From Deltaproteobacteria bacterium RIFOXYD12_FULL_50_9 (GTDB taxonomy: Bacteria > Desulfobacterota > Desulfobulbia > Desulfobulbales > CALZHT01), in contig MGTA01000167.1 in NCBI GenBank assembly GCA_001799225.1, positions 19,725-52,748 on the forward strand: DNA of 33,024 nucleotides, given 5' to 3'. Position 1 is the first letter of the stretch; each line of letters starts with the position of its first letter. The notes under the pieces are model-generated. The model worked only from the letters and a program-made list of their open reading frames with translations, did no database searches and was not told where the DNA came from. Of the stretch, positions 4,861 through 16,992 are shown in pieces. The translations under genes and the position numbers were made by a program.

Positions 4861-5205
4861 ATGCCTAGAGTTACGCGTGGTTTTAAAGCCCGTCGAAGAA
4901 GAAACAAGATACTCAACATGGCCAAAGGCTATATAGGCGGCCGTAGTCGTCTTTTTAAGACCGCTGCCGAGGCGGTTGATCGTGCGTTGGTATATGCCTA
5001 TCGTGATCGCCGAACCAAAAAGCGTGATTTTAGAAGGCTTTGGATCGTCCGGATAGCTGCTGCTGCCAAAATGAATGGAACGTCATACAGTAAATTGATA
5101 GGTGGATTGAAGAAAGCTAAAGTTGATCTTGACAGAAAGGTCTTGTCTAATATGGCTATTCTTGATCCGCAGGCTTTTACCGCAATCGTTAAATTAGCCT
5201 CCTGA
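4861..5205 (+). CDS. rplT: 50S ribosomal protein L20
   Basis: 114 aa, [24 protein letters not shown]...[29 protein letters not shown] lies upstream. Confidence 0.95.
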
Positions 5206-5233
5206 ATTCTTCTGCGCCTGTCACTATTCCGCC

Positions 5234-6247
5234 ATGGAAGAAGAATTACTGCGGCTGCAATCAGAGGCGAAAACCGAACTCTCTACTATTATCCGCCCGG
5301 ATGAACTTGAGTCTTTCAGGGTTAAATATTTAGGGAGGAAATGTACTCTTACTATGCTGATGCGGAAACTTGGCGAGGTTTCCGCGCAGGATCGTCCTCG
5401 GCTTGGTAATCTGGCGAACAGCATTAAAAAAGAGATAGAGGCTGATTTCCTTGAAAAGGAGATGGCCTTGACTCAACTGCAGGCCACCGGAAAAGGAGAG
5501 TCCAGAAAAGATTTAACTCTTCCGGGGCGGGTGATTCCTTTTGGACGTCGTCATCCGGTCTCTCAGGTTATGCTTGAGATCTGCCGTATTTTTGAAGGAC
5601 TCGGTTTTGCAGTGGCTGAAGGGTCCGATGTCGAAACAGATTATTATAATTTCGAGGCCTTGAATATCCCCAAGCATCATCCTGCCAGGGATATGCACGA
5701 CACCTTTTATTTTGATGAGAGCGTCTTGCTGAGGACGCATACCTCCCCCATGCAGATCAGGGCCATGGAGAAACAGGAGCCGCCTCTTCGTATTATTGCT
5801 CCCGGCAAGGTGTACCGCTGCGATTCCGATATCACTCATACCCCGATGTTTCATCAAGTTGAAGGATTTCTTGTTGACCGGCATGTCTCATTTGCTGATC
5901 TTAAGGGGGTTCTTTCTATTTTTATTGCCAAGATGTTTGATAGTAATGTTGCTATCCGTTTTCGTCCGAGTTTCTTTCCTTTTACTGAACCTAGTGCTGA
6001 AGTTGATATAGCCTGTGTGATATGTGATGGAAAGGGGTGTCGTGTTTGTAAACAAACTGGCTGGATTGAGATTCTTGGGGCAGGTCTTATTGATCCCGAG
6101 GTGTTTAGAATGGTTGGTTATGACTCCGAGAAGTTCAGTGGGTTTGCCTTTGGCATTGGGGCTGAGAGAATCGCCATGCTTAAATACGGAATCAATGATA
6201 TCCGTCTTTATTACGAAAATGACATGCGTTTTCTTTCGCAGTTCTGA
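5234..6247 (+). CDS. pheS: Phenylalanine--tRNA ligase alpha subunit
   Basis: 337 aa. It has an N-terminal coiled-coil and class II motifs (HPARDMHDTFY, FRPSFFPFTEPSAEVD, GFAFGIGAERIAML). Confidence 0.97.
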   Translation: MEEELLRLQSEAKTELSTIIRPDELESFRVKYLGRKCTLTMLMRKLGEVSAQDRPRLGNLANSIKKEIEADFLEKEMALTQLQATGKGESRKDLTLPGRVIPFGRRHPVSQVMLEICRIFEGLGFAVAEGSDVETDYYNFEALNIPKHHPARDMHDTFYFDESVLLRTHTSPMQIRAMEKQEPPLRIIAPGKVYRCDSDITHTPMFHQVEGFLVDRHVSFADLKGVLSIFIAKMFDSNVAIRFRPSFFPFTEPSAEVDIACVICDGKGCRVCKQTGWIEILGAGLIDPEVFRMVGYDSEKFSGFAFGIGAERIAMLKYGINDIRLYYENDMRFLSQF

Positions 6248-6315
6248 TAGCAGGTTGTTTTTTGCCGTATTATATTTTCGGCATTTTTTTAATGATTTAA
6301 AAAGCGGATTGACTC

Positions 6316-8739
6316 ATGAAATGCACCCTATCCTGGTTACGTAATTATATAGAGTGTGATCTCCCGACTGCCAAGTTGGTGCAAGGTCTGGTCATGGCTG
6401 GGCTTGAGGTTGATTCATGTCAGGAACTTTTTGAATATTTGAATGACAGCGTCAGGATAGTCAGAATTAAATCTGTTCGTCCGCATCCGCAGGCCGATCG
6501 TCTGGTATTATGTGATGTGGATGCCGGAGGCGAGAGAGTTCTCAGGATCGTCTGCGGGGCTCCTAATGCCAGACCTGGCCTGTTGACTGTGCTGGCCTTA
6601 CCGGGCACATCGTTACCGAATGGCGTAATTATCAAACAGAGCAAGATCCGTGGGGAGATTTCCGAGGGCATGCTTTGTTCGGAAAAAGATCTTGGGATTT
6701 CTGAAAATAATGCCGGGATTATAGACCTGCCAGACTCTTATGCGGTTGGCGAGCCTTTAGTTGATGCTCTTGATTTGCATGATACCTTGCTGGAAGTGGA
6801 TATTACTCCCAATCGACCTGATTGTGCCAGTGTTATTGGTATTGCACGGGAGATTGCCGGTTTTGCCGGGAAAAAACTGCGGGTTCCGGTTGCCCAGAAT
6901 CTTCCAGCCCTCACTGGCCAAAATCTGCCATTTTCAGTGGCGGTTGATTCTGCTGCCTGTCCTCGCTATTCCGCACGTCTTCTTAATGATGTAACTATAG
7001 CGCCTTCGCCGTGGTGGCTTAAGAAAATCCTGTTGGCTGTCGGCCTTCGTCCGATCAATAATGTTGTTGATATTACGAATTTCGTGATGCTTGAATTCGG
7101 TCAGCCTCTACATGCTTTTGATTTCGATCGTTTGGCCGGTGCTGGAATTATTGTCCGGCAGGCCCGACCATTAGAGAAGATCAATACCCTTGACGGCGTT
7201 GCACGGCAACTCGATCCGGAGATGCTGGTTATCTGTGATCATGAAAAACCTGTAGCTGTTGCTGGGATCATGGGCGGGTCAAGTTCTGAGGTGACTGCCT
7301 CCACCAAGCGGATTCTGCTTGAAAGCGCCTACTTTGATCCAGTCAGTATTCGTCGCACGGTCCGCAAGCTTAATATGAGTACTGATTCATCATACCGTTT
7401 TGAAAGGGGGGTTGATCCTGAGGGTATTCCAAAGGCCTTGGAGCGGGCGGTTCAGCTAATCGTTGAGTTAACCGGCGCTAAGCTTGTTGATGACGGTATT
7501 GATCTTATTCAAGGATTACCGGAAAAGAAGGTTATAAAGCTTAGGGTGCAGAGAGTCAGTGATCTCCTTGGAATCAATATCAGTGCCGAGGAGATCGAAC
7601 GTTTGCTGTTAGGTATTGAGATTATTGCTAGGCAGATTGATGAGTTGACTTTTGAAGTTGTGCCGCCGACTTTCAGGGTAGATCTTGAGCGCGAAATTGA
7701 TTTGATTGAAGAGATTGCCAGACTCAAGGGATATAATGAGTTGCCAAGCACCCTCCCCGTGACTCCTATGAGTTTTCCGGAGAATTGTCCTGTTCGTTCT
7801 CTTCGGGATAAGATAGCCGCCACCATGGTTGCCTTAGGTTTTTATGAGGCCATCAATTATAGTTTCGTCAGCGATCACAATGTTGATCTATTGGGGCTTG
7901 CTGTTCAAGACAAACGCCGACAGCAATTACGGCTTAAAAATCCGTTGGCTGAAGATCAGAATGTCATGAGGACCACTCTTCTACCGGCTTTGCTTGAAAA
8001 TGTTCGGCGCAACATCAACCATCAGACTTCCGATTTGCAACTTTTTGAGGTTGGCAAGGTGTTCCTCCCGCAGGGCGGAGAACTGCCTGAAGAGGATGAA
8101 CGTCTGACCGTTGTAATGTGTGGTAGACGCTATCCGGGTGCCCCCGTACTTCACTATTCGGCTAATGCCGTGGTCGATATCCATGATATCCGTGGGGTTG
8201 TTGAAACCATTTTGCTCCAACAGGCATGTGCTGGCGTAATATTCGACACCGATAGCGTCGATGAACAGTTGGGCGAAGCTGGCGAGTCAGTCGTATTAAG
8301 AGCTAATGGTCGGATGTTGGGCGGCTATGGACTGGTAGCTCGAAATATTCTTAAGAATTTTGGCATAAAACAGGATGTCTATTTTATAGATTTAAGCATC
8401 TCTTTATTGAGCCTGATTCCTCCCGAACCCAAAACATTTCGTCCATTATCGAGATATCCATCCGTCACATGGGATGTTGCCTTGGTTGTGCCGGAGGCCA
8501 TCAAATGCGGTGAGCTTTTACAGGCTGTGCATGAAGCTAAAGAAGTGTTGTTCGAGAAGGTTGAACTTTTTGATATCTATCAGGGAAATAATATTGATAA
8601 AGGCACTAAAAGTGTAGCATTGTCAATTACTTATCGTTCAGCTGATCATACATTGGAAGATGATGAAGTTGAAATAACACATAAAAAAATAATCAACTTG
8701 CTTATCTCACGGTTTCAGGGCAAGTTGCGAGAGGTGTGA
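6316..8739 (+). CDS. pheT: Phenylalanine--tRNA ligase beta subunit
   Basis: 807 aa with the MKCTLSWLRNYI start. It has an OB-type tRNA-binding domain (VRIKSVRPHPQADRLVLCDVD), B3_4 and B5 regions, and a C-terminal FDX-ACB-like domain. Confidence 0.97.
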   Translation: MKCTLSWLRNYIECDLPTAKLVQGLVMAGLEVDSCQELFEYLNDSVRIVRIKSVRPHPQADRLVLCDVDAGGERVLRIVCGAPNARPGLLTVLALPGTSLPNGVIIKQSKIRGEISEGMLCSEKDLGISENNAGIIDLPDSYAVGEPLVDALDLHDTLLEVDITPNRPDCASVIGIAREIAGFAGKKLRVPVAQNLPALTGQNLPFSVAVDSAACPRYSARLLNDVTIAPSPWWLKKILLAVGLRPINNVVDITNFVMLEFGQPLHAFDFDRLAGAGIIVRQARPLEKINTLDGVARQLDPEMLVICDHEKPVAVAGIMGGSSSEVTASTKRILLESAYFDPVSIRRTVRKLNMSTDSSYRFERGVDPEGIPKALERAVQLIVELTGAKLVDDGIDLIQGLPEKKVIKLRVQRVSDLLGINISAEEIERLLLGIEIIARQIDELTFEVVPPTFRVDLEREIDLIEEIARLKGYNELPSTLPVTPMSFPENCPVRSLRDKIAATMVALGFYEAINYSFVSDHNVDLLGLAVQDKRRQQLRLKNPLAEDQNVMRTTLLPALLENVRRNINHQTSDLQLFEVGKVFLPQGGELPEEDERLTVVMCGRRYPGAPVLHYSANAVVDIHDIRGVVETILLQQACAGVIFDTDSVDEQLGEAGESVVLRANGRMLGGYGLVARNILKNFGIKQDVYFIDLSISLLSLIPPEPKTFRPLSRYPSVTWDVALVVPEAIKCGELLQAVHEAKEVLFEKVELFDIYQGNNIDKGTKSVALSITYRSADHTLEDDEVEITHKKIINLLISRFQGKLREV

Positions 8740-12254: not shown

Positions 12255-14018
12255 ATGACAACATTTGTCGAAATTGGTGTCTGCAAAGAGATAGTCCAAG
12301 CACTTGATAAACTAGGGTTTTTAATCCCAACACCGGTCCAGGAACAGATAATCCCTTTGTTGTTGAAGAAGCAGGAAGATGTGGTCGGCCTGGCTCAGAC
12401 CGGTACCGGTAAGACAGCTGCCTTTGGTATTCCGCTTATTCAAACAATTGATATGAGTCGCAAACAGACCCAGGCCTTGGTTTTGTGCCCGACTCGGGAG
12501 TTGTGCGTTCAAGTAGCCAAGGATATGACGGAGTATGGTAGTTTTGTTTCAGGGTTGAAGATATTGGCTGTTTATGGCGGCGCCAGCATAATTAAACAGA
12601 TTCAGGAATTGCGTCATGGAGTGCAGATAATCGTTGCGACTCCTGGTCGTCTTCATGATCTGATCCGGCAACGTTATGTCGATATCTCGGCGATTAGGGC
12701 CGTGGTTCTTGATGAGGCCGATGAGATGTTGAACATGGGATTTCAGGAAGAGTTGAACGCCATTTTGGCTAAAACTCCGGCTGAGAAGAGGACTCTCTTG
12801 TTTTCAGCTACGATGCCCCGGGAAGTTGCTGCTATTGCCAATAATTATATGAATGACCCTTTGGAAGTTACTGTTGGCGAACGAAATGCCAGTGCCGAAA
12901 ATATTCGTCATATCTACTACACGGTTCATGCCAAGGATCGCTACCTGGCATTGAAGCGCATTGTTGATATGAATCCGGATGTTTATGCCATCATTTTTTG
13001 TCGAACACGGCAAGAAACCCAGGATGTTGCTGATAAGCTCGTGCAGGATGGTTACAATTCCGACGCACTGCATGGTGATTTGTCCCAGAGTCAACGCGAT
13101 CATGTGATGAAAAGATTCAGGTCCAAAAATCTTCAGATGCTTGTGGCCACCGACGTTGCGGCTCGTGGTCTTGATGTTAAGGATATCACCCATGTGATCC
13201 ATTATAATCTTCCTGATGAGGCCTCAATTTATTTACACCGGAGTGGACGAACCGGCAGGGCCGGTAAGACCGGGATTTCGGTCGCCATCATCAATATGCG
13301 TGAAAAACATACGATTAGGGAGATTGAAAAGAAGCTCAAAAAACAGTTTGAGCGGGGCAAAATTCCAACAGGGCAGCAAATTTGTGAAAAGCAATTGTTA
13401 AGCCGTATCGATTCGTGGCTTGCGATAGATATCAATCATGCTCGGATTGATCCATTTTTGCCGCTAATCGTTAAAAAAATGGAAGGACTTGACCGCGAAG
13501 CACTGATCAAGCTGTTTGTTTCTGTGGAGTTTAGCCGTTTTCTTGAGTATTACCGAGATGCACCTGATCTTAACATTCAAGAAACAGATAAGAGCCGGAC
13601 AGCTTTTAAGGAAAACGACGGCAAATTTCAACGGCAATCGAATTATCAGAAGTACACCAAGTTCATTCTTAGCGTTGGTAAAAAAGATGGGATCAACCCT
13701 GCCCGTCTGATTGCTGAGATTAACAGTGCGACAGTTGATACCCCCAAAATCGCGATTGGCAAGATTGAGATCATGGGTAGTTCCTCAATGATCGAGGTGG
13801 ACGGTAAGTTTACGCCGAAGATTTTGGATATCTTTAAACATGTGAGAATTAATGGTAAACCGGTTAACGTCAGAGTCGATGAGGGAAATATTTCCAAAAA
13901 GACGTCTAATCGTGGTGGTGGGCATTTTGCCGGCAGTAGTGTTCCGAAAAATCGTGAATCCATCGTCAGAAAAAAGTGGAAAAGTAAGGAAAAGACCTCC
14001 CCCAGGCAGTATGTTTGA
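12255..14018 (+). CDS. deaD: DEAD-box ATP-dependent RNA helicase, DeaD/CsdA-like
   Basis: 587 aa. Motifs: Q motif (F..TPVQ), AQTGTGKT, PTRELC, DEAD (VLDEADEM), SAT, HGDLSQSQR and HRSGRTGRAG. The C-terminus has a DbpA-type RNA-binding domain (FILSVGKKDGINPARLIAEI) and a basic tail. Confidence 0.92.
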   Translation: MTTFVEIGVCKEIVQALDKLGFLIPTPVQEQIIPLLLKKQEDVVGLAQTGTGKTAAFGIPLIQTIDMSRKQTQALVLCPTRELCVQVAKDMTEYGSFVSGLKILAVYGGASIIKQIQELRHGVQIIVATPGRLHDLIRQRYVDISAIRAVVLDEADEMLNMGFQEELNAILAKTPAEKRTLLFSATMPREVAAIANNYMNDPLEVTVGERNASAENIRHIYYTVHAKDRYLALKRIVDMNPDVYAIIFCRTRQETQDVADKLVQDGYNSDALHGDLSQSQRDHVMKRFRSKNLQMLVATDVAARGLDVKDITHVIHYNLPDEASIYLHRSGRTGRAGKTGISVAIINMREKHTIREIEKKLKKQFERGKIPTGQQICEKQLLSRIDSWLAIDINHARIDPFLPLIVKKMEGLDREALIKLFVSVEFSRFLEYYRDAPDLNIQETDKSRTAFKENDGKFQRQSNYQKYTKFILSVGKKDGINPARLIAEINSATVDTPKIAIGKIEIMGSSSMIEVDGKFTPKILDIFKHVRINGKPVNVRVDEGNISKKTSNRGGGHFAGSSVPKNRESIVRKKWKSKEKTSPRQYV

Positions 14019-14047
14019 GAGAAGATTCTAATTTTATATTTTTATCT

Positions 14048-14076
14048 CCTTTGCAGCTCTCTCCGGGCTGCAAAGG
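14048..14076 (+). terminator. Stem-loop after the helicase gene (terminator candidate, no adjacent U-tract)
   Basis: CCTTTGCAGC (14048-14057) pairs perfectly with GCTGCAAAGG (14067-14076) around a 9-nt loop. The nearest T-run lies about 20 nt downstream. Confidence 0.45.
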
Positions 14077-14118
14077 AAGTATAACTTCGAGTTTTTCATG
14101 ATCAAGTAACGCTTTTCG

Positions 14119-14147
14119 TTGACTCGAAAATTAGCATTTGTTATATC
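14119..14147 (+). promoter_or_regulatory. Sigma70-type promoter candidate for the MgtE_N/CBS-NRAMP operon leader
   Basis: TTGACT (14119-14124), a 17-nt spacer ending in TGT, then TATATC (14142-14147). This would give a leader of roughly 295 nt before the ATG at 14449. Confidence 0.4.
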
Positions 14148-14243
14148 AATCCGAATAGTAATAATAAGCGTTTGACGATGGCATATTGCTACTTGTTGAT
14201 TAAGACGTTTTTTTAGACTACCCCCTTCAATTTGGAGTAACAC

Positions 14244-14339
14244 ATGGACGAAGGTCCTAGTCCGAGTAAATGTTGTGACAGGCCCTTTGCTGCGCAAGGC
14301 TTATGTCTGGCATGTCGGCCATGTGTGGCTTACATGTAG
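14244..14339 (+). CDS. Candidate leader sORF, 31 codons: MDEGPSPSKCCDRPFAAQGLCLACRPCVAYM
   Basis: ATG at 14244 lies 6 nt after GGAG (14234-14237), and TAG is at 14337-14339. It is below the ORF-track size cutoff. It has 5 Cys (all TGT) and 4 Pro. There is no homology evidence. Confidence 0.3.
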   Translation: MDEGPSPSKCCDRPFAAQGLCLACRPCVAYM

Positions 14340-14344
14340 TTTTT
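14311..14344 (+). promoter_or_regulatory. Terminator-like hairpin overlapping the sORF 3' end (possible attenuator)
   Basis: CATGT-C-GGCCA (14311-14321) pairs with TGGCT-T-ACATG (26-36), with one mismatch, one G-T pair and a TGTG loop. The sequence TAG TTTTT (14337-14344) follows, so the sORF stop codon sits between the stem and the T-run. Confidence 0.35.
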
Positions 14345-14448
14345 CCTGCCTGACAGCTCACCTGCCTGCCCAGGGCCTTTTGGTGTATCTTAGCCATTAT
14401 CCGTAAAATTTTTTAAACCGGTTGGCATTAATCATCAGGAGGTTCGCA

Positions 14449-15750
14449 ATGGATCAAACCAATGCCCAGATCAATTCCTCTGAACAGCATCAACCCCACA
14501 CCTTTTTCTTTGCCTCGACATATCTGGGTAAAGAACTGACGGCAAATGGCGAATCAGTCGGTCGGATCAAGGACCTTGTAGCCCATCGCGGCACAAGTAT
14601 TTATCCACAGCTTGATGGCGCAATCGTCCGCAAGCAGGGAAAAGATTATTTTTTGCCGGCGGAAAAGATCATCTTCCCCAGCACCTCAGCGCTTAAAAAG
14701 TTCGAGTTGGTTTCTGCTGAGCTTGCCGAGTATTCTCCTGAGAAACAGCAGTTTTTCCTCCGCGATGTTTTTATGGACAAACAGATAGTCGACATGCAGG
14801 GTGCCAAAGTAGAAAGGGTAAATGATGTTCAGTTGATGACGGTTAATAACAAATCCTATCTGGTTCATGTTGATGTCGGACTTCCCGGACTTTTACGGCG
14901 TCTTGGTTTTGAAGGCCAGGTGCGCGGTTTGACCAGATTGTTTGGTAAAGATCTTAAAGAGGATTTGATCTCCTGGCGTTATGTGCAGCCCCTTGAGGCT
15001 GGTCATGGCACAGTTCCTGTCCGGCTTATGGTTGATCATCAAGCATTAAAAGGACTGCATCCTGCTGATCTTGCTGAGATTCTTGAAGATCTGAATAAAG
15101 GGGATCGTGTCGCACTGCTCCATACTGTAGATACTGAGACAGCAGCAAACGCCCTGGAGATGGTCGAGCCTGAACTAGGTGCTGCGATCGTCCAGGATCT
15201 TGATCCTACCAGAGCCGCAGAGATCTTTGAGGAGATGGAACCTTCAGTAGCTGCAGATATCTTTGAAGAGTTACCCGAGATGCACCAGGAGGTCATCATG
15301 GGACAGATGGAGCCTGAGGAGCGTGACGAAATCGGGTTGCTCCAGGCCTTTGAAGAGAGAACGGCAGGCTCTCTGATGACCACTGATTTTCTGCAGATAT
15401 GTATTACAAAAACCGTTGGCGATGCCCTTAAGTTCATTCGCGACAATGCTGATGAGGTGGAAATAGTTCATTATGTCTATGTCGGTGACGACTATGGCCA
15501 TCTGATTGGTGTTGTAAGCATAAAGCAGCTTATTCTGGCAGCGCCGGAGGTCTTGTTGCACGACCTTGAGATGCCCAGGTTGATCACGGTCGAGACGGAT
15601 GATGAACTGGAAAAGGTGGCTGATCAGTTTTATAAATATAAATTTCTAGCCATACCAGTGGTGGACGACAAAACAAGGTTGCTTGGCATTATCAGTTACA
15701 AGCACAGCTTTGATGAACTGGTCTCCTACTATTATCGGGAAGCGGCGTAA
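14449..15750 (+). CDS. Soluble MgtE_N + tandem CBS domain protein (MgtE cytoplasmic sensor module without the membrane domain)
   Basis: ATG at 14449 lies 6 nt after AGGAGG; the track start TTG 14422 is rejected. MgtE_N-like helical repeats are acidic: LHPADLAEILEDLNKGDRVALL...RAAEIFEEMEPSVAADIFEELP. A CBS pair follows: GSLMTTDFLQI...LIGVVSIKQLI and FLAIPVVDDKTRLLGIIS. A roughly 130-aa N-terminal extension may be PRC-barrel-like. The protein ends without any hydrophobic TM region. Confidence 0.87.
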   Translation: MDQTNAQINSSEQHQPHTFFFASTYLGKELTANGESVGRIKDLVAHRGTSIYPQLDGAIVRKQGKDYFLPAEKIIFPSTSALKKFELVSAELAEYSPEKQQFFLRDVFMDKQIVDMQGAKVERVNDVQLMTVNNKSYLVHVDVGLPGLLRRLGFEGQVRGLTRLFGKDLKEDLISWRYVQPLEAGHGTVPVRLMVDHQALKGLHPADLAEILEDLNKGDRVALLHTVDTETAANALEMVEPELGAAIVQDLDPTRAAEIFEEMEPSVAADIFEELPEMHQEVIMGQMEPEERDEIGLLQAFEERTAGSLMTTDFLQICITKTVGDALKFIRDNADEVEIVHYVYVGDDYGHLIGVVSIKQLILAAPEVLLHDLEMPRLITVETDDELEKVADQFYKYKFLAIPVVDDKTRLLGIISYKHSFDELVSYYYREAA

Positions 15751-15753
15751 CTG

Positions 15754-16992
15754 ATGGCTGAGACAAAAAAAAGTTTTAGACTGCGGTTTCTGCTGTTTTT
15801 GAGCATCATGGGACCCGGGATTATTACCGCCAATGTCGATAATGACGCAGGCGGAATTGCGACATACAGCCAGGCCGGCGCCTTGTATGGTTTCGATGTA
15901 TTATGGATATTTATCCCCATGACCGTGGTCCTGGTTCTTGTCCAGGAGATGGCAAATCGTATGGGGGTGGTCACCGGCGATGGTTTGTCCTCCCTTATCC
16001 GAGAGCGGTTTGGCGTAAAAATCACCTTTTATCTTATGCTGGCCCTGCTGGTCACCAACTTCGGCAATATTATGGCCGAGTTTGCCGGAATAGCTTCTGC
16101 CGCCGAACTGTTCGGCATCCCGCGTATTATTGCCGTACCGATCTGTGCCTTTTTGGTTTGGTACATGGTATTGCGCTGGAGTTACCGATCGGTGGAAAAG
16201 ATTTTTTTACTCGGTTGTTTTTTTTATGTGGCTTATCTGCTTTCCGCTTTCATGGCCAAGCCGGACATGGGTGAGATCGCTATTGCCCTGGTAACACCGA
16301 AACTGATCGCCACCAAGGATTACATGTTCATGCTGATCGGTATTGTCGGTACGACAATTGCGCCGTGGATGCAGTTTTATCAGCAGGCAAGCATTGTTGA
16401 GAAGGGGATAGATATTGAAGACTACAGCTATTCCCGCTCCGACACCATCCTGGGTGGTATTACCGTAAGTATTGTCGCCATGTGCATTGTAGTGGTCTGC
16501 GCCATGACCCTGCATCGCAGCGGGATCAGCATTGAGGATGCCTCGCAGGCGGCGCAGGCCCTAGCTCCTCTGGCCGGTCTGCAGGCCAGTAAACTTTTTG
16601 CTTTTGGGTTGTGGAATGCCTCAATGTTCGCGGCCTGTATATTGCCACTCTCTACTGCTTATTCGATCTGCGAGGCTCTTGGTTGGGAGCGCGGTGTTGA
16701 TCAGCGCTATGAGGATGCAAAGCAATTTTATGTTCTCTATACAACCTCGATCATCCTTGGTGCTTTGATTGTCCTGATCCCCGGCCTCTCCTTGATGAAC
16801 GTAATGCTCATCTCCCAGATCGTTAATGGTTTTCTCTTTACGGTCATTCTCGTTTTCATGCTCATCCTGGTGAATGATGAAAAACTGATGGGGAAGTATA
16901 CCAACAGCCGGTTTTATAATGCGGTCTGCTTCGCAACCGTTGTCGTTTTAGCGCTAATTTCGGTTGTTTCGTTGTTTTCATTGGTTCTGTAA
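15754..16992 (+). CDS. NRAMP-family transporter with NRMT-type (Mg2+-like) binding-site residues
   Basis: 412 aa and polytopic. ATG lies 3 nt after the upstream TAA. The TM1 motif reads D31-A-G-G34 where canonical NRAMPs have DPGN. TM6 reads T200-T-I-A203-P-W-M where canonical NRAMPs have A-x-x-M-P-H-N. Confidence 0.9.
   Translation: MAETKKSFRLRFLLFLSIMGPGIITANVDNDAGGIATYSQAGALYGFDVLWIFIPMTVVLVLVQEMANRMGVVTGDGLSSLIRERFGVKITFYLMLALLVTNFGNIMAEFAGIASAAELFGIPRIIAVPICAFLVWYMVLRWSYRSVEKIFLLGCFFYVAYLLSAFMAKPDMGEIAIALVTPKLIATKDYMFMLIGIVGTTIAPWMQFYQQASIVEKGIDIEDYSYSRSDTILGGITVSIVAMCIVVVCAMTLHRSGISIEDASQAAQALAPLAGLQASKLFAFGLWNASMFAACILPLSTAYSICEALGWERGVDQRYEDAKQFYVLYTTSIILGALIVLIPGLSLMNVMLISQIVNGFLFTVILVFMLILVNDEKLMGKYTNSRFYNAVCFATVVVLALISVVSLFSLVL

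Follow-up and report, generated by a model that had tools for sequence, protein, structure and literature searches.

The window, by which we mean the whole 33,024-nt stretch of DNA analysed here, contains a DEAD/DbpA helicase gene followed by a two-gene operon that encodes a soluble PRC-MgtE_N-CBS protein and an NRMT-type Nramp protein (Table 1). From the sequence and the ORF list, we found that the helicase gene and the operon are separated by a spacer of 430 nt, the distance given in a preliminary description of this DNA. Within the spacer lies a short open reading frame (sORF) that is preceded by a Shine-Dalgarno (SD) sequence and begins 205 nt 5' of the main start codon. Direct reading bears out its 31 codons, its four Pro and its five Cys, each encoded by TGT, all of which had been pointed out before. 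An antisense ORF of 87 aa at 14034-14297 had no match in Pfam or NCBIfam.

Table 1. Coordinates of features in the spacer and the adjoining genes, numbered from the first nucleotide of the window
Feature	Position	Strand	Details	Basis
DEAD/DbpA helicase ORF	end 14018			ORF list
Candidate sigma-70 promoter	14119-14147	+	TTGACT 14119-14124, 17-nt spacer, TGt-TATATC, hexamer 14142-14147	
AU/GU-rich hairpin in sORF 5' UTR	14166-14214	+	7-U run at end (14208-14214)	minimum-energy folds
Shine-Dalgarno GGAG	14234-14237	+	6-nt spacer to sORF ATG (14244)	sequence
Leader sORF	14244-14339	+	31 codons and stop TAG (14337-14339); MDEGPSPSKCCDRPFAAQGLCLACRPCVAYM	sequence; family membership
Conserved core of sORF, codons 1-8	14244-14267	+	M-D-E-G-P-S-P-S (ATG GAC GAA GGT CCT AGT CCG AGT)	codon table, peptide alignment
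Terminator-like hairpin and U-tract	14310-14344	+	hairpin 14310-14337 overlapping the stop codon, then UUUUU 14340-14344	fold, -13.7 kcal/mol
C-rich, G-poor tract after sORF stop	14340-14399	+	19 C and 12 G in 60 nt; CCUGCC three times	base counts
Anti-SD segment GGGCCUUUUGGUGUAU	14373-14388	+	pairs with main RBS region; also complementary to sORF codons 2-5	duplex energies
Main RBS and start codon of PRC-MgtE_N-CBS gene	14437-14451	+	AGGAGG 14437-14442, start codon 14449-14451	sequence, Pfam
Operon	14449-16992	+	soluble PRC-MgtE_N-CBS protein 14449-15750; NRMT-type Nramp 15754-16992	Pfam, site motifs

The TG-extended promoter candidate upstream of the sORF had been placed correctly. A stricter promoter scan of the window passes over it, owing to the C at the end of the -10 hexamer. 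It lies at -125 relative to the sORF start. Among 21 related leaders, 13 show a similar arrangement, TTGAC(A)-16/17-T...., within the range -68 to -125 of the sORF start. The sequence of the hairpin between promoter and sORF is unconserved, and relatives have different hairpins at that place.

We asked what the downstream operon is likely to do. The metal site of the Nramp protein reads D-A-G-G and T-T-I-A-P-W-M (T-x-x-A-P-W), which is the NRMT signature. It agrees with the metal-site changes of NRMTs described with the EleNRMT structure, namely Asn to Gly, Ala to Thr, Met to Ala and His to Trp (PMC8806188). An M-box lies directly upstream of 21 other homologous operons, none of which carries the sORF, and the M-box model scores 130-131 bits before the homologous operons in L081 and L098. 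The transporter site motifs of the M-box-controlled homologues are identical to those at the sORF loci. On these sequence features the operon is a probable magnesium uptake operon. As a point against Mg2+, one homologue without an M-box, that of A. capsulatum, has been reported to carry mostly Mn2+ (PMC4072509). Operons lacking an M-box were noted by Shin et al. 2014, the text of which describes no leader ORF for them (PMC4072509).

The preliminary description had recognised no M-box, yybP-ykoY or NiCo motif in the leader, and covariance-model searches confirm this. Running cmscan over the whole window with all Rfam 15 families at the gathering score gave no known leader RNA, Mg_sensor included, and at E values up to 10 neither strand of 13950-14520 matched M-box, yybP-ykoY, NiCo or Mg_sensor. 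The only match, a weak PyrR-like one on the minus strand over the terminator hairpin of the helicase gene, was rejected at 30 bits against a cut-off of 54 bits. Neither the M-box (RF00380) in the window or the whole genome, nor a full-length MgtE in the genome, was found; the genome is 87% complete.

We found that the sORF belongs to a family of leader ORFs, M-[DEG]-[EDA]-G-[PAV]-S-x-S, which we define here as lying before PRC-MgtE_N-CBS operons, usually with an NRMT-type Nramp gene next. Members are on the same strand as the PRC-MgtE_N-CBS gene, have an SD-preceded start 130-320 nt 5' of it, are about 26-31 codons long, follow the codon pattern ATG GAN GAN GGN NCN AGT NNN RGY and are succeeded by a C-rich, G-poor tract. 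The sORF of the window has the position, N-terminal codons, length and C-rich tract of this family. The core motif was found on the sense strand upstream of 31 of 170 homologous loci, compared with none on the reverse complement and none in equal lengths of coding sequence, and it occurs once in a search of the window's own genome. In the upstream DNA fetched first, every operon whose protein is at least 51% identical had an SD-preceded sORF starting M[DEG]EG[PAV]S. One homologue at 50% identity is an exception and lacks the canonical sORF. The closest homologue, P0002 (61% identity), was left out of the leader comparison. The family widens to the variants MDDGPS, MDAGPS, MDDGTAS and MDDASS, and the same sORF start recurs before homologous operons in several phyla. 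Across 21 distinct starts, the peptides begin M-[D/E/G]-[E/D/A]-G-[P/A]-S-x-S-[D/E]-x-P. A purine-rich sequence resembling an SD also precedes the related sORFs, usually by 5-11 nt, and in a few of them it is weak. Additional pattern matches in L204, L232, L236 and L240 were rejected as chance occurrences inside genes, and 400 sampled genomes of the window's phylum gave no further copy, the single match being a chance one within a coding region. In one genome, a second true copy of the sORF precedes genes for an OprB porin and a POT peptide transporter, so the sORF module appears to be portable.

The substitutions within this family are of the coding type. Conservation covers the first 8-11 codons and is periodic by codon: in the codon table of the 21 starts, first and second codon positions are held and third positions vary freely, the least conserved nucleotides of the sORF being 9, 12, 15, 21, 24 and 27. 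Gly4 is encoded by GGC, GGA, GGT or GGG, Pro5 by CCT, CCA, CCC or CCG, and the acidic ninth codon uses all four Asp and Glu codons. One member starts with GTG. In one subgroup the only indel in the sORF is of 3 nt, and those in the rest of that leader are of 1, 2, 10 and 12 nt. Length is held as well: of 13 lineages with unalignable C-terminal halves, 9 have an sORF of 26-31 codons (P of about 9e-8 against shuffles). Judged by these comparisons, the 31-codon sORF is no chance ORF. The alignment of orthologous leaders, proposed earlier as a check, shows conservation in several phyla. The earlier emphasis on a Pro-rich peptide needs to be amended: the window's peptide does contain its four Pro, but the conserved trait is an acidic N-terminus of small residues (MDEGPS.S), not richness in Pro.

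It is unlikely, in our view, that the open frame is incidental and that the 18-30 conserved nucleotides (SD, AUG and the next five codons) instead belong to a structured cis-acting RNA, or to a binding site for a small RNA or for a protein such as the operon's own PRC-barrel protein. Constraints at the RNA level, as read from codon choice and a compensatory helix, are nonetheless present in addition. Ser6 is AGT in 18 of the 21 starts and AGC or TCN in none, and Glu3 is GAA without exception. Synonymous sites are conserved within subgroups; in one of these, codons 1-26 contain four changes, every one of them non-synonymous, in a region more conserved than its flanks. In several subgroups the sORF start pairs with an internal segment of the sORF, as in the D-type leaders, where a helix joins sORF nt 3-11 with nt ~64-72. 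The partners differ between subgroups in a compensatory manner (GACGACGG:CCGUCGUU, CGAAGGCGC:GCGUUUUCG and GGAGGAAGGC:GCUUUCUUCC). The mean z of this pairing is -1.0 over 21 leaders, and in the window the sORF start pairs with other segments no better than shuffles do. A local hairpin at the sORF start, GGAC-GAAG-GUCC, with apparent covariation to GGGC-GAAG-GCCC, was rejected, being broken wherever codon 5 is Ala. Against an explanation by RNA alone stand the 3-nt periodicity, the four codons each at Gly4 and Pro5, the maintained SD spacing, the GTG start, the tightly clustered ORF lengths and the in-frame indel. In addition, a ligand-binding aptamer would need a longer conserved stretch, the rest of the leader is unconserved between subgroups, and the permissive Rfam search found no match.

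We infer that the sORF is translated, and we next consider the RNA structures with which a ribosome on it could interact in the window. The preliminary description had noticed a terminator-like hairpin at the end of the sORF. It stands as a feature of the window: GCAUGU-C-GGCCA-UGUG-UGGCU-U-ACAUGU forms 11 pairs and ends on the U of the stop codon, and AG and then UUUUU come next. UGU codons are the building blocks of its arms. The last 39 nt of the sORF fold at -14.1 versus -8.7 for shuffles (z = -2.4). A simple terminator scan of the window does not call the hairpin, probably because its stem is interrupted. As a family trait it was rejected: the mean z is -0.29, the hairpin is genuine in L211 as well as in the window, and a U-tract after the sORF stop occurs in the window only, the relatives being C-rich at this place. 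An alternative pairing proposed at the same time, of ACAGGCC (14278-14284) with GGCCAUGU (14317-14324), exists, and the duplex of the two regions has an energy of -14.3 kcal/mol. The pairings 14244-61/14272-95, 14272-95/14308-26 and 14310-37 compete at similar strengths of about -12 to -14 kcal/mol, and minimum-energy folds of the window with a "ribosome" placed at different sites gave no single clear on/off logic.

Two further elements lie downstream of the sORF. The first is the C-rich tract, which we predict to be rut-like in function. In the 60 nt after the stop, C exceeds G in 20 of 21 family members, and inside most sORFs G equals or exceeds C. A rho gene is present in the window's genome. 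The second, absent from the earlier reading of the sequence, is a helix that would sequester the main RBS: the anti-SD segment pairs with 14425-14450 at -18.8 kcal/mol (z = -3.4), and none of 200 shuffles was as good. RBS sequestration is likewise real in the window and was rejected as a family trait (mean z -0.48). The sORF start was also tried as an "anti-anti-SD", with 14244-14261 pairing to the anti-SD segment at -14.5 kcal/mol; this was not better than shuffles and is kept as a possibility. The Cys-rich tail, the hairpin with its U-tract and the strong RBS helix are thus significant mainly in the window and are not family traits.

We compared this arrangement with known leader systems. 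One is the MgtL/mgtA leader (Rfam Mg_sensor), known from Salmonella and E. coli. There, too, a Mg2+ importer gene has a long leader with a short ORF, in which an acidic, Pro-containing motif comes right after Met (MEPDPT there, MDEGPSPS here); RNA pairings overlap the ORF, and a downstream C-rich tract may load Rho. It differs in that sequence and covariance-model similarity are absent, MgtL has 17 codons instead of 26-31, and the importer is a P-type ATPase rather than an NRMT with a soluble MgtE-like protein. MgtL is found in Enterobacteria, and the sORF family in uncultured lineages of several phyla, with Gly, Ser and Ala within its conserved motif. The window adds an intrinsic-type terminator and an RBS-sequestering helix, and its Mg2+ dependence is predicted. 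The M-box mgtE-like/nrmT operons (PMC4072509, PMC8806188) share the two-gene organisation, the motifs D-x-G-G and T-x-x-A-P-W, a long leader and its position; they differ in carrying an M-box where the conserved sORF stands here. Two further small upstream ORFs are reported whose translation is tied to expression of a downstream Mg2+-related gene: the Mbox-uORF of M. tuberculosis, with Rho termination (PMC12810186), and Salmonella mgtQ (PMC8092293). Both are unrelated in sequence to the sORF family, and in M. tuberculosis the M-box is the sensor. As in trp-type attenuators, the window has an SD-preceded leader ORF, a hairpin with U-tract at its end and competing pairings; unlike them, it has no tandem regulatory codons, its stop codon lies within the terminator stem, and its terminator is unconserved in relatives.

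The tna leader offers another parallel. TnaC is a leader peptide of ~24-30 residues, and a putative Rho entry site, which a ribosome can block, begins at the stop of its ORF. The sORF family resembles it in peptide length and in putative Rho entry from the stop codon on. TnaC, which responds to free tryptophan by stalling at the stop, has its conserved residues towards the C-terminus; those of the sORF family are N-terminal.

Taken together, we think it likely, with some reserve, that the PRC-MgtE_N-CBS/NRMT operon has the 430-nt spacer as its 5' leader and that this leader contains a cis-acting, predicted translated leader ORF on which the progress of the ribosome is coupled to termination or to RBS access. 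The sORF is most likely an undescribed control switch read by the ribosome, as far as sequence comparison can tell. This is in line with the preliminary description, which had raised the idea of translation-coupled attenuation before a putative Mg2+ uptake operon, and is supported by the coding-type conservation, the NRMT signature and the M-box at the same place in 21 operons. Transcription would start near 14155, and a ribosome would load at the GGAG/AUG (14234/14244) and begin with M-D-E-G-P-S-P-S. The fate of the transcript would be set by the distance that the ribosome travels on the sORF. A ribosome that reaches the stop would melt the hairpin at 14310-14337 and cover the beginning of the C-rich tract. 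One that stopped early or fell off would do neither. The position of the ribosome would also select between the terminator and the alternative helices, and determine whether the anti-SD segment pairs to the main RBS or to the sORF start. The pairings so chosen would decide whether RNA polymerase and ribosomes get to the operon, with termination that may be intrinsic or Rho-dependent.

The likeliest signal would be cytoplasmic Mg2+, read by the ribosome itself. N-terminal sequences rich in D/E and P, with small residues, abort translation, more so at low Mg2+, and MgtL (MEPDPT) controls mgtA in this way (Chadani et al., 10.1101/2021.02.02.429294). We propose Mg2+ as the signal because the N-terminus of the sORF, being acidic and made of Pro and small residues, is this published recipe for intrinsic ribosome destabilisation: D2, E3, P5 and P7 fall within the first seven residues of the window's peptide, and the remaining residues are small (G, S). 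A further-reaching version, which we advance tentatively and hold with less than even confidence, is that the sORF family constitutes a second class of ribosome-based Mg2+ sensor that evolved independently. The nascent M-D-E-G-P-S would destabilise the ribosome at low Mg2+, helped by the wobble-read AGU, and the leader would convert this into read-through of a Rho-dependent or intrinsic terminator and opening of the RBS. The module would then be a portable replacement of the M-box in several mostly uncultured phyla, placed in at least one genome before a porin and a peptide transporter.

To our knowledge, Mg2+-sensing leader peptides are known in detail only from enterobacterial leaders of the mgtA, mgtCBR and corA type. 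Here a different, well-conserved leader ORF precedes a different class of Mg2+ importer, far from Enterobacteria and at the position of the M-box. If translation of M-D-E-G-P-S proved to be Mg2+-sensitive, sensing by ribosome destabilisation would be a principle of general use and not a peculiarity of Enterobacteria. It would also account for the regulation of NRMT operons that lack an M-box, a gap left by the work of 2014.

The signal could instead be something other than Mg2+, such as tRNA charging (e.g. of tRNA-Ser at the AGU, or at Pro, Asp or Gly codons) or general translation capacity, and we give this a low probability. The Ser AGU codon at position 6 and the serine-rich S-x-S or SSS stretch would suit such a sensor, and mgtL itself responds to proline too. 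The second sORF copy, in front of the porin and peptide transporter genes, also speaks against a Mg2+ signal, as no obvious Mg2+ gene is found there. On the other side, the same type of operon, with identical transporter site motifs, is under M-box (Mg2+) control elsewhere, the tandem run of a single regulatory codon that marks classical attenuators is missing, and the five Cys codons of the window are unconserved.

The peptide could also act in trans, either as a metal-binding Cys peptide or as a regulator of the transporter like MgtS, MgtR or MntS, which we regard as improbable. The N-terminus is conserved, a subclass of 47 residues (MDAGPSSSRYMMIV...) is conserved over its whole length, and the peptide of the window contains CC...CxxCxxC, which had led to the metal-binding proposal in the first place. 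That proposal does not hold up against the comparison, since no Cys position is conserved and the C-terminal two-thirds of the peptides are unalignable between subgroups; in the window, the UGU codons fall on the hairpin arms. Inspection of the aligned peptides by eye showed no hydrophobic helix, and searches of Pfam and NCBIfam with the window's peptide gave no family match. That the sORF is a chance ORF in an ordinary long leader, controlled at the promoter alone by a transcription factor, is very improbable and already contradicted by the comparative data: frames of 26-31 codons do arise in 12% of shuffles of such composition and the promoter described earlier went uncalled by the scan, but the motif is enriched at homologous loci over controls, recurs across phyla and is unique in its own genome.

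The cis-acting, ribosome-read leader ORF that we favour belongs to a family that matches no Rfam, Pfam or NCBIfam family and is almost wholly unannotated. A profile of the peptide, compared with a collection of 5.8 billion proteins, retrieved three clusters. Each is of the 47-residue subclass, and no member outside this subclass has ever been called as a gene; one cluster is named "hypothetical protein" and the other two are nameless.

The leader occupies a 430-nt spacer between a DEAD/Helicase_C/DbpA helicase ORF, which ends at 14018, and the first gene of the operon. The preliminary description had reported this spacer together with a promoter-like site, a Shine-Dalgarno sequence, an sORF containing Cys and Pro codons, and a hairpin at the end of the sORF, and all of these are borne out by the sequence and by folding (see table). 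The sORF contains five Cys codons, all of which are TGT, and four Pro codons. Its final 39 nt fold more stably than dinucleotide shuffles (z = -2.4), and the terminal hairpin ends on the stop codon's U, after which comes AG-UUUUU. Because neither the promoter nor the terminator was listed by simple scans for such sites, we treat both as candidates only.

Features of the leader and operon (window coordinates unless a homologous locus is named)
Feature	Position	Strand	Detail
Hairpin past the helicase stop	14048-14076		10 pairs; CCTTTGCAGC ... GCTGCAAAGG
Promoter candidate	TTGACT 14119-14124; hexamer 14142-14147	+	17-nt spacing; TGt-TATATC
AU/GU-rich hairpin	14166-14214		3' end is a seven-U run
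sORF Shine-Dalgarno	14234-14237	+	GGAG, six bases ahead of ATG 14244
sORF	ATG 14244, TAG 14337-14339	+	MDEGPSPSKCCDRPFAAQGLCLACRPCVAYM
Interrupted hairpin	14310-14337		11 pairs; built by the last nine sORF codons; -13.7 kcal/mol
RBS helix	14373-14388 with 14430-14443 (main RBS region)		13 pairs; hides AGGAGG of the MgtE_N-CBS gene
Weak promoter-like site	14381-14410		TTGGTG, 18 nt, TAAAAT
First operon gene	AGGAGG 14437-14442; ATG 14449
Nramp gene	15754-16992		412 aa
MgtE_N-CBS/Nramp gaps in relatives	L200 2790-3253; L201 2790-2967; L034 3838-3973

When the leader was scanned with covariance models, as the preliminary description had suggested, no Rfam family matched, either at gathering score or at E values up to 10. 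The sole weak match was a sub-threshold, PyrR-like one on the opposite (minus) strand, scoring 30 bits where the cut-off is 54 bits and located at the hairpin just past the helicase stop, which is probably just the helicase terminator. Past the candidate promoter and ahead of the sORF, the AU/GU-rich hairpin resembles a weak terminator within the 5' UTR; it is not conserved among relatives. Should the weak promoter-like site that lies past the sORF and ahead of the main gene be active, a share of operon transcription would bypass the sORF.

The preliminary description had also called for a check of sORF conservation, and among about 220 loci coding for relatives of the MgtE_N-CBS protein we found that the start of the sORF recurs ahead of homologous operons. 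The identical MgtE_N-CBS protein occurs on nine contigs from other samples, where the three leaders shown are identical too and hence uninformative. In the first set of upstream regions retrieved, all operons at 51-54% protein identity have a 460-550-nt leader, each with an SD-preceded sORF that starts M-[D/E/G]-E-G-[P/A/V]-S. Looser searches widened the family to further starts (MDDGPS.SE.PL; MDDGPGASE; MDAGPSSS and MDAGPGHS, with GTG as the start codon in one of the two; MDDGTASRSGDKP and MDDASSRTDQPP), and the family consensus is M-D-[E/D]-G-[P/A]-S-S-S-[D/E]-x-P. In a test of 170 loci, the nucleotide motif was present upstream on the sense strand in 31, and was found neither on the reverse complement nor in equal lengths of coding sequence; it occurs once only in the window's own genome. 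Within a small phylum of 17 genomes, the sORF is present in all 10 that bear the operon, and likewise in an eleventh that has a partial match to the MgtE_N-CBS protein. It was also found on a Chloroflexota contig (L078) and on several metagenome contigs. Among 400 genomes sampled from the window's own phylum, only the window's genome has the sORF, one further motif match being rejected as chance. The canonical sORF is missing from one homologue with 50% identity.

Four lines of evidence argue that the sORF is read as protein, and each also counts against the main rival explanation, which is that the conserved segment acts only as RNA. First, conservation over 21 distinct starts has a 3-nt period, with nearly invariant first and second codon positions: Gly4 is encoded by GGC, GGA, GGT and GGG, Pro5 by all four CCN codons, and the acidic codon 9 by GAA, GAG, GAT and GAC. 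Second, a purine-rich, SD-like stretch precedes the start in the members shown, mostly by 5-11 nt, and is weak in a few. Third, the sORF is 26-31 codons long in 9 of 13 lineages whose C-terminal halves cannot be aligned with one another (P of about 9e-8 against shuffled tails, for a length range picked post hoc). Fourth, the sole indel within the sORF in one subgroup is 3 nt long, as against 1, 2, 10 and 12 nt in the rest of the leader. 

Constraint on particular codons and base pairing point to selection at the RNA level as well, and speak for the RNA-only rival. One subgroup shows much stronger conservation in its first 26 codons than in the flanks, and all four changes there are non-synonymous. 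The Ser6 codon is AGT in 18 of the 21 starts and AGC or TCN in none, and Glu3 is encoded by GAA throughout, including in leaders of G+C-rich appearance. The start of the sORF is complementary in sequence to an internal stretch at about nt 55-75, and RNAalifold predicts for five D-type leaders a nine-pair helix whose extensions include the AGU. The helix partner varies compensatorily among subgroups (GACGACGG/CCGUCGUU, CGAAGGCGC/GCGUUUUCG, GGAGGAAGGC/GCUUUCUUCC). Over 21 leaders this duplex is on average one standard deviation better than shuffles; in the window itself it is no better than shuffles. We read the conserved start as a dual-use segment, serving both peptide and RNA, as is likewise the case in classical attenuators. 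The invariant AGU could reflect a slow, wobble-read codon beside a P-site proline, or else pairing within the helix.

The peptide matches no Pfam or NCBIfam model. Among 5.8 billion predicted proteins the family amounts to three clusters only, one named "hypothetical protein" and two nameless, all of a 47-residue subclass (MDAGPSSSRYMMIVQHIQDYDDQQ...; loci L150 and L174, and P0122-P0124). Conserved over its full length, and alone in the family in having been called as a gene, this subclass may have turned into an independent small protein.

The first operon gene encodes a soluble, 433-aa protein with PRC, MgtE_N and two CBS domains, and the Nramp gene starts 3 nt past it. Helix 1 of the Nramp contains D-A-G-G and helix 6 T-T-I-A-P-W-M, and the protein carries the residue changes that distinguish NRMT (Mg2+) from Mn2+/Fe2+ Nramps (Asn to Gly, Ala to Thr, Met to Ala, His to Trp; PMC8806188). 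Shin et al. (2014, PMC4072509) described NRMT genes paired with genes for an MgtE cytoplasmic domain, many of these operons lying downstream of M-box riboswitches. Because one homologue lacking an M-box transported mostly Mn2+ in the assays of Shin et al. (PMC4072509), Mg2+ is the probable, though not certain, substrate of the window's transporter. The window's genome (87% complete) has one corA and a rho gene, and we found in it neither an MgtE membrane domain nor an M-box. The rho gene is on the same contig (G000:C167:57258-57479), ~4.5 kb past the window's end.

The Rfam M-box model scored 130-131 bits directly upstream of homologous operons in Pelotalea chapellei and a Desulfofundulus MAG, and a profile made from these two sequences recovered 21 loci with an M-box 33-214 nt ahead of the gene. 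The sORF was present in none of the 21, and the transporter site motifs are identical behind M-boxes and behind sORFs. M-box and sORF leader are therefore alternative occupants of one regulatory position. The translation-coupled attenuator originally proposed for the putative Mg2+ uptake operon is supported by the conserved, apparently coding sORF and by its alternation with the M-box, but its hairpin terminator is not general.

Across the family, a stable hairpin at the end of the sORF is not the rule (mean z -0.29), and among the members seen only the window, whose leader looks much less G+C-rich than those of its relatives, has a hairpin plus U-tract of the intrinsic-terminator type. In the 60 nt past the stop, C exceeds G in 20 of 21 members, often 2-3 fold, while within most sORFs G is no rarer than C; the post-stop skew is the composition of Rho-loading sites. 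The RBS helix, absent from the preliminary description, has an energy of -18.8 kcal/mol versus -12.1 in shuffles (z = -3.4; equaled by 0 of 200). This helix, which is not general among family members, could provide the window's leader with a second point of control.

A ribosome initiating on the sORF would synthesize M-D-E-G-P-S-P-S. N-termini rich in D, E and P destabilize the ribosome and lead to translation abortion, especially beside small residues; low Mg2+ strengthens such abortion, and MgtL (MEPDPT) thereby induces mgtA (10.1101/2021.02.02.429294). The family's conserved residues fit this published description. Early abortion, as opposed to a run to the stop, could determine whether the U-tract hairpin or a Rho-loading site is exposed, and which partner the anti-SD segment (the 5' arm of the RBS helix) chooses. 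The stop codon is located within the hairpin and borders the C-rich tract. In thermodynamic folds, the lowest-energy structure of the ribosome-free leader is without the terminator, which forms with a ribosome on codons 1-16 and cannot form with one at the stop; such predicted folds do not reveal in which sense the switch would work. The translation of the sORF, the signal and the mode of termination are all putative.

Altogether, we conclude that this is a real, conserved leader ORF that probably belongs with the leader-peptide attenuators of Mg2+ transporters. The closest known system by function is mgtL, although Rfam scans show that the window's leader is not a member of the mgtL family by sequence or structure. 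A literature search found no paper on a leader ORF ahead of NRMT operons, an absence that is not proof given the limited search.

A second genuine copy of the sORF (MDDGPSSSEAPPARGKSADWLTVVSRRSA, 29 codons) lies in another genome (G079:C114; L237; L243 about 4880-6590, minus strand), where it has a TTGACA promoter of its own and its stop is followed by a C-rich tract. It precedes not an NRMT operon but genes for an OprB-family porin and a POT/PTR2 peptide transporter, which argues that the module is portable; the signal it senses may be broader than Mg2+. At locus L203 (GCA_019912885.1, JAIOHV010000035.1), the leader sORF is retained even though the Nramp gene is encoded on the opposite strand and runs convergently to the MgtE_N-CBS gene, so the leader tracks the gene for the sensor-like protein rather than the transporter gene as such. 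The gap between the two genes is 130-460 nt in several relatives versus 3 nt in the window, and a 53-codon ORF is called within that of L200.
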